IMG/VR virus record: IMGVR_UViG_3300021431_000080
Span: 132,460-164,270 of that record
DNA: 31,811 nt
Direction: 5' to 3' (one strand)
Source of the DNA: a virus
Taxonomy: Duplodnaviria > Heunggongvirae > Uroviricota > Caudoviricetes
Positions within the stretch are counted from its first letter, which is position 1. The number at the start of each line of letters is the position of its first letter. The position numbers were made by a program, and so were the translations under genes. The notes under the pieces were generated by a model, which saw only the letters and a program-made list of their open reading frames with translations, searched no databases and was not told the origin of the DNA. Positions 1 through 4,982 of this stretch are shown one piece after another.

Positions 1-13
1 AAAGAAAAAGAGG

Positions 14-751
14 ATGCAGAGAAAGTTGTCCAAAAAAGTTGGTTCGAAGAAAGGACAACACAAGTCTAACAATTACATGAAGCTTCAACGAAAGATTTCG
101 AAGATAGACCAAAAGATTTCCCGTCGTAGAGAACAATACCAATATGAAGTCGTGTCTGATATTATCGAAAGAAAATGTGACTATATCGGAATTGAGGATC
201 TTAATGTAAAAGGAATGTCTTCTACAGGAAGACGCAAGAAAAACGAAAAACTTAGCCAAGACGAATATAATGCTCTTTCTGACGAGGAAAAGAAAAAATA
301 CAACAGAAAGAAGAAAAGAGGATTCAACAGGAACGTTCTGAACAACGGCATGTATTCCTTCAAAATGAAACTTGAACAAAAAGCTGTTGAATCTGGAAAA
401 GAGGTTGTGACAGTAGGAAGATTCTACCCGTCGTCACAAACATGTTCGAATTGCGGAGAAAAGAACAAGGTAACAAAAAATCTGAACGTTAGGAAATGGA
501 CATGTGAAAAGTGTGGAACTGTCCATGACAGGGATGTCAATGCTGCCAAGAACATACGAAACGAAGCAATAAGAATAAAGAACGAATGTGAGCCAACACA
601 TAAAAACCTACCGAGGTGTAACCGGGATGTCAAGTCTGCGGAGATCCATAAGAATGAAAACCAACAAGTGGTTGAAGTTCATAGGGTCGTTGAACCAGAA
701 ATACAAACTGTTTTTGTGGATGAACCAATTGAAAATGCTGTGATTACATGA
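14..751 (+). CDS. tnpB: TnpB-like RNA-guided nuclease (C-terminal part; CRISPR-adjacent, candidate miniature type V effector)
   Basis: RuvC-II IGIEDLNVKGM, YPSSQTCSNCG...WTCEKCG zinc ribbon, RuvC-III HDRDVNAAKNI. The frame is open to the window edge, so the gene starts upstream and RuvC-I is not visible. Confidence 0.85.
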   Translation: MQRKLSKKVGSKKGQHKSNNYMKLQRKISKIDQKISRRREQYQYEVVSDIIERKCDYIGIEDLNVKGMSSTGRRKKNEKLSQDEYNALSDEEKKKYNRKKKRGFNRNVLNNGMYSFKMKLEQKAVESGKEVVTVGRFYPSSQTCSNCGEKNKVTKNLNVRKWTCEKCGTVHDRDVNAAKNIRNEAIRIKNECEPTHKNLPRCNRDVKSAEIHKNENQQVVEVHRVVEPEIQTVFVDEPIENAVIT

Positions 752-756
752 AGTCT
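608..756 (+). ncRNA. Putative omegaRNA/tracr-like scaffold overlapping the tnpB 3' end
   Basis: Hairpin CCG-AGGTGTAAC-CGG (611-625) whose loop TGTAAC is complementary to GTTACA at the repeat 3' end. 708-720 CTGTTTTTGTGGA can pair with repeat segment TCCATAAGAAACAG. TnpB omegaRNAs are known to overlap the ORF 3' end. Boundaries approximate. Confidence 0.55.
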
Positions 757-978
757 AATGGAACTCCATAAGAAACAGAAGGTAGTTACAACAGCGTGCC
801 GTCAATGCCGTGAGTCTATTTGAATGGAACTCCATAAGAAACAGAAGGTAGTTACAACCGATAAGCCTAATGCAGCCGTCAGCGGCGAATGGAACTCCAT
901 AAGAAACAGAATGTAGTTACAACATATAGAGCTAATATTTCATCTGGAACTCCATAAGAAACAGAATGCAGTTACAAC
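757..978 (+). CRISPR. CRISPR array: 4 repeats of 36 nt (AATGGAACTCCATAAGAAACAGAAGGTAGTTACAAC), 3 spacers
   Basis: Repeats at 757-792, 823-858, 888-923 (1 mismatch) and 943-978 (4 mismatches). Unique spacers of 30, 29 and 19 nt. Degeneration towards the right suggests + orientation. Confidence 0.92.
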
Positions 979-997
979 AAAGAAGAACAAAAATAAT

Positions 998-1723
998 ATG
1001 AAGCAACAACACTTGAGACACATTACCTTCACTGGTGTAGACGAGATGGCAGACTTGAAGGGTCTGCAGGAACTTCAAAGTGAATATCCGATTGTAGAGT
1101 TCGGTGTTCTGTTTTCAAAAAACTGGAAGAACAACGGAAATAGGTATATCAATCCTGAATACATGAAGATCCTCGGAAGAAAGGGATTGAACCTTTCTTG
1201 TCATGCTTGTGGGAGCATCGCGAGGGATGCACTTCGTGGAAACTGGATGTCTCTTGAGCAGGTGACTAACGGAATGTATCCGTTCAAACGGTGCCAGCTT
1301 AACATCGCGAGAGCCGACATAAAGGAAGATGCCCTCAACACCACGCTTCCCGTCGGACTCGAAGAGGTTATCATCCAGCAAAGGGACGCTGATCATCTGT
1401 CGATATGGGACAGAATCCAGAACCATTACGGAATGTCCATCCTGTTCGATGCATCAGGCGGGAACGGAATCGACACAGGATTCGAGCCGTTCGCTATGGA
1501 GAATATCAGAATCGGTTACGCTGGTGGTATCACTCCTGAGAATGTCGCCGACAAACTCACGTTCCTTCTCAACAACGAGAATGTGTACGACTTCTGGATC
1601 GACATGGAGTCTGGTGTCAGAACAGATGACTGGTTCGACTTGAACAAGGTGGCTAAAGTTCTTGAGGTTTGCAAGCCTATAATCGAGAACCATAAAAATC
1701 AATTTGCTGAGGAGAAACAATGA
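998..1723 (+). CDS. Phosphoribosylanthranilate isomerase (TrpF)-like TIM-barrel protein
   Basis: C-terminal ILFDASGGNG...GYAGGITPENV...WIDMESGVRTDDWFDLNKV resembles the TrpF LLD-SGG-G / LAGGL-PENV / DVSSGVE phosphate-binding motifs. Confidence 0.65.
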   Translation: MKQQHLRHITFTGVDEMADLKGLQELQSEYPIVEFGVLFSKNWKNNGNRYINPEYMKILGRKGLNLSCHACGSIARDALRGNWMSLEQVTNGMYPFKRCQLNIARADIKEDALNTTLPVGLEEVIIQQRDADHLSIWDRIQNHYGMSILFDASGGNGIDTGFEPFAMENIRIGYAGGITPENVADKLTFLLNNENVYDFWIDMESGVRTDDWFDLNKVAKVLEVCKPIIENHKNQFAEEKQ

Positions 1724-4945: not shown

Positions 4946-4982
4946 ATTTAAGGTTCGGTTTTCTTTTTTCAAAAATTATAAG

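Follow-up and report, generated by a model that had tools for sequence, protein, structure and literature searches.

A phage tnpB gene whose 3' end probably carries a guide-RNA scaffold fused to a short repeat-spacer array

The stretch of DNA analyzed here (hereafter the window) comprises the final 31.8 kb (31,811 nucleotides, nt) of a 164-kb virus record, IMG/VR IMGVR_UViG_3300021431_000080, whose completeness is 57%. It begins within a tnpB gene, the stop codon of which is followed by an array of four 36-nt repeats. The region from about 585 or 601 to 792 is probably the guide-RNA scaffold of a domesticated phage TnpB, and the locus an intermediate between transposons and CRISPR (short palindromic repeats that are clustered and regularly interspaced) of the TranC / type V-U* kind. 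As is usual for TnpB guides, the omegaRNA scaffold overlaps the 3' end of the gene and the guide lies directly after it; the evidence supports the repeat as the 3' module of this omegaRNA, with both of its pairing partners located inside the tnpB tail. A preliminary description of the sequence had proposed that positions 608-792 form one omegaRNA with spacer 1 as its guide. Covariation, nucleotide-level conservation, RNA contigs and a layout matching that of ISDra2 uphold this proposal, while the start of the RNA has to be moved to 601 or earlier. The parts of the locus are listed below by window position, with lengths of proteins in amino acids (aa).

2-751, + strand: C-terminal part of tnpB (249 aa of 465), from Pfam, NCBIfam, alignment and nearest structure
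585-600, + strand: small hairpin (stem 586-589 with 596-599, UGUG/CACA; GGUG/CACC in homologs), just upstream of the RNA contig start, from folds
601-756, + strand: omegaRNA scaffold, putative part resembling a tracrRNA (trans-activating CRISPR RNA), overlapping the last 50 tnpB codons and the stop, from RNA contigs and third-codon identity
611-625, + strand: hairpin 1 (stem 611-613 with 623-625), whose loop 617-622 is the 5' strand of the pseudoknot, from covariation
635-699, + strand: long-range basal helices around an inner hairpin (635-644 with 687-699; 645-647 with 684-686), from the RNAalifold consensus and pair counts
640-654, + strand: repeat-like segment of the window/L146 lineage only, 13/15 identical to repeat positions 760-774
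702-704, + strand: UAC pairing with GUA 782-784, closing the base of the terminal stem, from folds
708-720, + strand: anti-repeat, 5' strand of the terminal stem, with 765-778 or the same segment of repeats 2-4 as partner, from the duplex matrix
757-792, + strand: repeat 1, the omegaRNA 3' end, containing 765-778 (partner of the anti-repeat), GUA 782-784, GUUACA 785-790 and a terminal AC
793-822, + strand: spacer 1, putative guide of the fused single-guide RNA, from RNA contig 601-812
823-858, + strand: repeat 2
859-887, + strand: spacer 2
888-923, + strand: repeat 3
924-942, + strand: spacer 3, short
943-978, + strand: repeat 4, terminal and degenerate

Pairing between scaffold and repeat

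Two long-range pairings connect the scaffold with the repeat. The first joins the anti-repeat (708-720, CTGTTTTTGTGGA) to repeat segment 765-778 (TCCATAAGAAACAG) through 13 base pairs (bp), with one bulge (G772) and a single G-U pair (716:769); the preliminary description had noted this helix. When the region after the conserved CCAGAAATACAA was paired with a downstream repeat in RNAduplex, the energy was -16.0 kcal/mol, against a mean of -7.9 for shuffled repeats, of which 3/1000 did as well. The second pairing is a pseudoknot: the hairpin formed by 611-613 and 623-625 (CCG/CGG) displays TGTAAC (617-622), the exact complement of GTTACA (785-790), which ends two bases ahead of spacer 1. A pseudoknot beside the guide is known from all Cas12 guides.

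Both pairings were evaluated across homologs. The proteins of the clade to which the window belongs are 436-510 aa long, with 45-90% identity, and are followed by ordinary 370-aa TnpBs at 36-41%; 12 loci of the clade were fetched, all of them in phage-like contexts. A hand-set structure (hairpin 1, the pseudoknot and three long-range helices) was scored on an alignment of 11 sequences. In this structure 93% of the cells are paired and both partners have changed in 11/21 pairs; all 500 shuffles fall short on every measure, and pairing falls to 29-40% when the partner columns are slid. Compensatory changes affect all pairs of the hairpin 1 stem (3/3; 100% of cells paired) and four of the six pairs of the pseudoknot helix (92% of cells paired). 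For both 617-622 and 708-720, the covariation which the preliminary description had called for is present in 10 homologous phage loci. The pseudoknot strands vary together among the following loci:

Window: loop UGUAAC, 3' strand GUUACA
L231: loop UGUACU, 3' strand AGUACA
L236: loop UGUAU, 3' strand AUACA
L248: loop CACAC, 3' strand GUGCG, with two U:A to C:G swaps

The anti-repeat always lies directly after the conserved CCAGAAAUACAA, and the repeat's 5' half varies in step with it. When every anti-repeat region was paired with every second-unit repeat, covering five repeat types, the best partner was a repeat of the own type, from the same locus or a close relative, with L236 as the exception. 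For five loci, 0-7 of 1000 shuffled repeats match the cognate energy; at the two most distant loci, 31-57 of 1000 do so. In the window, the anti-repeat pairs about equally well with all four repeats (-16.0 to -16.2 kcal/mol). Own-type matching, the shuffle controls and the equal pairing of the later repeats together place the scaffold among those whose anti-repeat pairs with repeats as in a split omegaRNA.

Smaller elements complete the structure. The helix between 702-704 and 782-784 belongs to the minimum-energy structure in L228, L230 and L233 and to the window centroid, and in L248 it has C:G in place of U:A. The covariation of the 585-600 hairpin is visible even in the proteins (C..H versus G..P versus R..R), and this hairpin may act as a signal for processing or form the 5' portion of a precursor. 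The resemblance of 640-654 to the repeat, a further point of the preliminary description, is real and non-random (P about 0.008 in 2000 dinucleotide shuffles of the scaffold) but is not conserved: no equivalent occurs at that place in L147, L230, L234 or L236. The segment may be a trace of the window lineage rebuilding its terminal stem, and no function is assigned to it.

Nucleotide-level selection and RNA contigs

From about 585 onward, it is the nucleotides of the tnpB tail that are conserved. Third-codon identity reaches 79-100% in the tail, compared with 29-44% in the upstream catalytic block (73% for L146), and identical residues are encoded by identical codons in 7/8 to 13/13 cases in the tail (602-643), against 8/33 to 14/33 in the catalytic block (32/43 for L146, which is 86% identical). 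Since synonymous sites are almost frozen in the tail and free upstream, selection acts on the nucleotides; on the sequence evidence, the conserved peptide KNLPRCNR.VKSAE is largely the translation of the RNA.

Metatranscriptome contigs were placed on positions 1-2000, and each matches the window at 100% identity. From the source samples, two runs yielded RNA contigs 601-786 (in two runs) and 757-852, and a run from another study yielded a contig 601-812, which ends 20 nt into spacer 1. RNA contigs start at 601 in three runs from two studies, shared contig ends being a weak hint only, and none falls on the gene body (1-600) or on spacers 2-3, although we conclude nothing from the lack of cover by itself. 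At the breaks, 786 and 852, 31-mers begin to be common to more than one repeat. The start of the RNA, or of its precursor, lies at 601 or earlier, and the contigs fit a stable, abundant RNA of about 210 nt, cut out of the mRNA, in which the scaffold, repeat 1 and some 20 nt of spacer 1 would make up a natural single guide, with some molecules continuing into repeat 2.

With these data, it is very hard to credit the view that the complementarities are chance matches or by-products of coding constraint and that the repeats are an unrelated orphan array. The region does code for protein, and a 6-nt pseudoknot match alone could arise by chance. Against this view stand synonymous sites that are almost frozen in the tail and free upstream, compensatory changes above all 500 shuffles and all slid controls, the better fit of anti-repeats to own-type than to other-type repeats, and RNA contigs that cover the tail and not the gene body.

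A phage promoter motif, CAGTATCTTTGCA / (C)AGTATCTTTGCA, bears on how the scaffold is transcribed. Nine copies of it occur in the window against 0.9 expected, all on the + strand: the (C)AGTATCTTTGCA form lies at 4980, 10449, 19271, 22387, 26184, 27159, 28250, 29165 and 30783. It includes the Bacteroidota -7 promoter element TAnnTTTG; the motif is probably a phage promoter and indicates a Bacteroidota host. One copy is located upstream of tnpB (L001, about 822-834), and CAGTATCTTTGCA was not found in window positions 1-1000, which favors co-transcription with tnpB followed by processing. A scan for sigma-70 promoters and terminators gave nothing informative, and an Rfam search of positions 1-1100 returned a chance-level RNase P match only (E 0.59).

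The TnpB effector

The full tnpB open reading frame (ORF) encodes 465 aa (L001:854-2251), starts 647 nt 5' of the window (G000:C1:131813) and ends with a stop codon at 749-751. The protein has the domain composition of TnpB, namely an N-terminal helix-turn-helix (HTH), an OrfB_IS605 RuvC core and a zinc-ribbon TNB domain, each above its Pfam cut-off (PF12323 HTH_OrfB_IS605, 71 bits; PF01385 OrfB_IS605, 62 bits; PF07282 Cas12f1-like_TNB, 84 bits), and it scores 273 bits against the NCBIfam model NF040570 guided_TnpB (cut-off 100). The RuvC triad D190/E281/D394 is intact and invariant across a 30-sequence alignment, so RNA-guided DNA cutting would be the expected nuclease output; competing mobile elements are its likely targets. 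The ORF extends 71 aa beyond the RuvC-III aspartate D394, and the figure of about 55 aa past the RuvC-III motif given in the preliminary description is correct when counted from the end of the conserved NIRNEAIRIKN block. Among solved structures, ISDra2 TnpB comes closest (E 3e-52), while LaTranC (PDB 9jfo) matches at E 1e-32. The protein does not belong to the Cas12f family, to which only its C-terminal zinc-ribbon/RuvC part shows matches (E 1e-6 to 6e-5). At 465 aa, the effector is compact, which gives it practical value.

TnpB family membership, together with repeats that contain the omegaRNA (right-end) terminus, could also be accounted for by an active IS200/IS605 element, the repeats being a series of right ends that stem from tandem or nested insertion events. 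This is very unlikely. The 164 kb hold a single copy, with no second scaffold or repeat; no adjacent tnpA-sized ORF was seen (the tnpA families were not searched explicitly); the unit period is fixed at 65-67 nt; and the neighborhood is conserved, being the same in the 86% relative and also shared between the 69% and 60% relatives.

The repeat-spacer array

The array consists of four 36-nt repeats after the tnpB stop, and the next gene begins at 998. Repeat 2 does not differ from repeat 1, and the 14-nt and 6-nt pairing segments are retained in each of the four. Variable positions of the repeat are located outside the paired segments (positions 1, 2 and 25) or affect only the small GUA helix (position 27), and the changes in downstream repeats of L146 and L147 occur at the bulge or as wobbles that preserve pairing. 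In six lineages the repeat-spacer period is 65-67 nt and the spacers are 29-31 nt long and wholly different between lineages: a TnpB-type effector with an adjacent array of differing spacers is the arrangement by which TranC / type V-U* loci are recognized.

The gene directly after the array (998-1723) encodes a 241-aa protein with a weak match to phosphoribosylanthranilate (PRA) isomerase (PF00697). It is kept at the equivalent place in L146 and in the contig of P0003.

Several observations weigh against our interpretation of the locus. Within the array, spacer 3 is short (19-22 nt) and repeat 4 degenerate. A comparison of the window array with cultured phages and plasmids gave no protospacer, hence no target and no target-adjacent motif (TAM); in IMG/VR, no match was found to exact 20-mers taken from spacers 1 and 2 of the window or from the L230 and L147 spacers; and all spacers compared with the 164 kb of the phage itself and with each locus fetched gave self matches only. 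No Cas1 (PF01867) match was found in the 164 kb (57% of the genome), and on that scope the locus does not count as an adaptive one. The single-sequence minimum-energy fold of the window lacks the stem between anti-repeat and repeat, which appears only in the centroid and in homologs, so that comparative evidence is relied on for it, and in L249 (45% identity, at the end of a truncated contig) the unit end and the pseudoknot could not be fitted. Finally, assembled contigs cannot prove RNA ends, and carry-over of DNA is formally possible, though the patchy cover argues otherwise.

Some of these points would suit another scheme, in which only unit 1 works, as an ordinary omegaRNA, and repeats 2-4 are inert remnants of tandem duplication that never serve as guides. 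The longest RNA contigs end in repeat 2 or spacer 1, the distal units are degenerate or short, and neither adaptation genes in the 164 kb examined nor spacer targets were found. Inert remnants would not be expected to include an identical second repeat, to keep the pairing segments in all four copies, to change by wobbles that maintain pairing, or to hold regular spacers of 29-31 nt with wholly different sequences in six lineages. We therefore consider this scheme unlikely.

Proposed working model

In the model we propose, the scaffold would be transcribed together with tnpB, probably from the upstream phage promoter, and then excised from the mRNA. The loop UGUAAC of hairpin 1 would pair with GUUACA-AC, the last bases before the guide, to form the pseudoknot, and the terminal stem would arise by pairing of the anti-repeat (708-720) with repeat segment 765-778; covariation supports both helices. 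Because repeat 1 is covalently joined to the scaffold, unit 1 would constitute a natural single-guide RNA with spacer 1 as guide, a species supported by the RNA contigs. The later repeats keep the segments that bind the anti-repeat and form the pseudoknot, and therefore any of them could replace repeat 1: repeats 2-4 may do so in cis, by looping out the units that precede them in the transcript, or in trans once the RNA has been cleaved. When used in trans, the scaffold would act as a tracrRNA and the later spacers as guides. That repeats 2-4 could function as CRISPR RNA (crRNA) with the scaffold as tracrRNA, as the preliminary description suggested, is consistent with their pairing potential and with RNA contigs reaching repeat 2.

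A more speculative extension, which we consider rather improbable, treats the scaffold as the leader of the array. Units would enter next to the scaffold, the newest spacer would become the fused and most abundant guide, and older spacers would act in trans; the repeats (36 nt, CAAC end, 30-nt spacers) would have been kept similar to those of host type VI-B/II-C arrays, which would let a phage without cas1/cas2 borrow the adaptation machinery of the host.

Comparison with known systems

The closest parallel is ISDra2 TnpB, the nearest solved protein, whose scaffold also overlaps the 3' end of its gene. In the ISDra2 omegaRNA, the stem-1 loop forms a pseudoknot with bases -5 to -3, and the tracrRNA-like half is connected to the crRNA-like half by a terminal stem with a tetraloop (PMC10097598; Nakagawa et al. 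2023; PDB 8bf8, 8h1j). The window layout corresponds one-to-one: a 5' hairpin loop pairs with the bases before the terminal AC and the guide, and a terminal stem is present. Ordinary relatives of the clade keep the ISDra2-type GAA:UUC pseudoknot, with the hairpin CCGUAG-GAA-CUACGG and the end GTAGTTCAC / GUAGUUCAC. The window differs from ISDra2 in a pseudoknot lengthened to 6 bp, in a terminal stem with a 44-nt loop that holds the stop codon instead of a tetraloop, in an insertion of about 30 aa after RuvC-II, and in having no tnpA-sized neighbor in view, no sign of mobility and four copies of the 3' module with different spacers.

TranC effectors are the second point of reference. For them, the omegaRNA has been demonstrated to be functionally split into tracrRNA and crRNA (Jin et al., Cell 2025, 188:6283, as cited in PMC13565253 and bioRxiv 10.64898/2026.03.27.714800), and the effectors are TnpB-sized and nested among TnpBs, with repeats of 32-38 nt (median number 4-5), without cas1/cas2, and with a reported phage-borne member, CauTranC9 (PMC13565253; 10.64898/2026.03.27.714800). 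The window resembles these systems in its TnpB-sized effector, short downstream array, phage location and anti-repeat scaffold, and differs in that its first repeat has not been separated from the scaffold, which is located within the ORF and not between gene and array. Its protein is also much nearer to ISDra2 TnpB than to LaTranC.

Type V-U* comprises TnpB-derived branches with a downstream array only, for which an origin by serial duplication of omegaRNA segments or by insertion beside an existing array has been proposed (Altae-Tran et al. 2023, PMC10691335). The window shares the TnpB-derived effector and the exclusively downstream array, and is assigned here by locus architecture, not by placement among V-U6 to V-U45. 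In Cas12f (type V-F) guides, two helices connect repeat and tracrRNA: the pseudoknot (repeat:anti-repeat 1), made by the 3' part of the repeat, and the last stem (repeat:anti-repeat 2), made by its 5' part (PMC10097598). The window repeat likewise pairs twice with its scaffold, through pseudoknot and terminal stem, although the protein similarity is weak and C-terminal and there is no separate tracrRNA gene.

The locus is a well-supported new example of the known TranC / type V-U* intermediates and not a new kind of system, because TnpB-derived array systems and the splitting of the omegaRNA were already published in 2023-2025. Its particular value lies in the unsplit first unit, by which one transcript presents both guide formats (the fused guide of transposons and the repeat-spacer format of CRISPR), in a family with several intermediate forms, and in a possible link to host type VI-B repeats. 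As the clade includes loci with a single guide, with short repeats and with full arrays, natural variants make it possible to test how an omegaRNA turns into tracrRNA plus crRNA, for which engineered splits were formerly needed.

Homologous loci

The clade was found in Logan and ENA assemblies and in the IMG/VR record of the window only. Protein scans of IMG/VR, GTDB genomes and JGI metagenomes returned, besides that record, only ordinary TnpBs of at most 41% identity, and a conserved-motif DNA scan of IMG/VR gave unrelated matches. Arrays with 36-nt repeats occur in L146, L147, L228, L230, L234 and L236; two short units of 17-20 nt in L232; and a single guide only in L231, L233 and L248. In the protein tree, the window groups with L146, L228, L147 and L230 (support 99/99), the single-guide loci fall outside, and a deeper branch (L234, L236) also carries arrays. 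L146 (86% identity) has the same neighboring genes and the same repeats as the window and a different spacer.

One relative is present in two samples (L234:3927-4130 versus L235:2110-2250): L234 and L235 are 100% identical in coding sequence, and one array has exactly one additional repeat-spacer unit next to the scaffold. This difference may reflect polarized gain or loss of spacers; collapse of repeats during assembly could give the same result.

In addition, a conserved leader, about 110 nt long and containing the GC-rich hairpin GGCGGGGTTGGG...CCCGACCCC, is found upstream of tnpB in L147 (2885-3000) and in L230, L232 and L233 (2385-2500). The relatives bearing it differ in gene order (in L233, tnpB lies on the other side of a lactamase-like gene), and it is absent from the window lineage. 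The leader may be a regulatory 5' untranslated region or a left-end relic.

Origin of the array

Multiplication of the last 36 nt of the omegaRNA, as proposed in the preliminary description, is one possible origin of the array. Three points speak in its favor: the 3'-terminal 12 nt of the repeat (GGTAGTTACAAC) share homology with GGTAGTTCAC, the end of ordinary TnpB omegaRNAs in array-less relatives, repeat 1 is located at the position where an omegaRNA ends, and L232 contains what looks like a short local duplication.

The alternative is that the array was captured from, or shaped to mimic, a host Bacteroidota array with 36-nt GUUG...CAAC repeats (type VI-B, possibly II-C), after which the anti-repeat adapted to it and the single-guide relatives were secondarily reduced. 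Type VI-B repeats are 36 nt long with 5'-GUUG and CAAC-3' ends and 30-nt spacers (10.1101/092577). The arrays of the clade, with 36-nt repeats ending in CAAC and spacers of about 30 nt, share the geometry of these type VI-B (Cas13b) arrays. A pattern search of 401 sampled Bacteroidota genomes identified 2 with arrays of 36-nt repeats ending in GGTAnnnACAAC (G324:C1:383638-385300; G128:C8:300-443), an ascertainment that is biased since the pattern was derived from the motif of the family itself; the G324 array adjoins a Cas13b gene (NF038190, 746 bits). The L234 repeat is 25/36 identical to both type VI-B repeats, which share 27/36 with each other, and outside the searched motif the identities are 14/24 for L234, 13-14/24 for L236 and 12/24 for L230 (P 0.0008-0.014; L234 P 0.001-0.006). 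Arrays are, moreover, present on both deep branches of the clade, and the phage promoters are presumably of Bacteroidota type.

Against capture stand the clear homology of the last 12 nt to the ordinary omegaRNA end, the location of repeat 1 exactly where an omegaRNA ends, and the two-unit array of L232, whose repeats of only 17-20 nt look like a local duplication. The repeat of the window itself is not significantly VI-B-like (7/24). Type VI-B systems also differ in their effector, which here is a TnpB-family DNA nuclease, and in that the guide here lies 3' of the repeat. Given the VI-B likeness of the geometry and of the repeats of relatives, capture or mimicry is a serious rival for the origin of the array, one that we hold to be possible yet clearly short of probable, and it is no rival for the working architecture, which it would leave unchanged. 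The discovery of array-less mobile TnpBs already ending in GGTAnnTACAAC would favor duplication over capture. The Cas13b-like repeats of some relatives also raise the question of spacer gain by phage arrays that have no adaptation genes.

Phage context and other TnpB-like elements

The locus is present in metagenome runs from bovine, goat and other animal guts. The phage carries a second TnpB gene outside the window (G000:C1:72249-73328; loci L253/L254), with a 403-aa frame that is 37% identical. It has an ordinary omegaRNA end, GGGTAGTTCAC, without an array, and two copies of the promoter motif are located downstream of it, 65 nt apart. In a further set of IMG/VR contigs (L238, L239 and L242, one of them labelled GVMAG), an identical stretch, with GTTGAACCAGAAATGCAATGGTAAGTAAAC at its end, is similar to the 3' portion of the family scaffold and may be the omegaRNA of another TnpB/Fanzor-like element.

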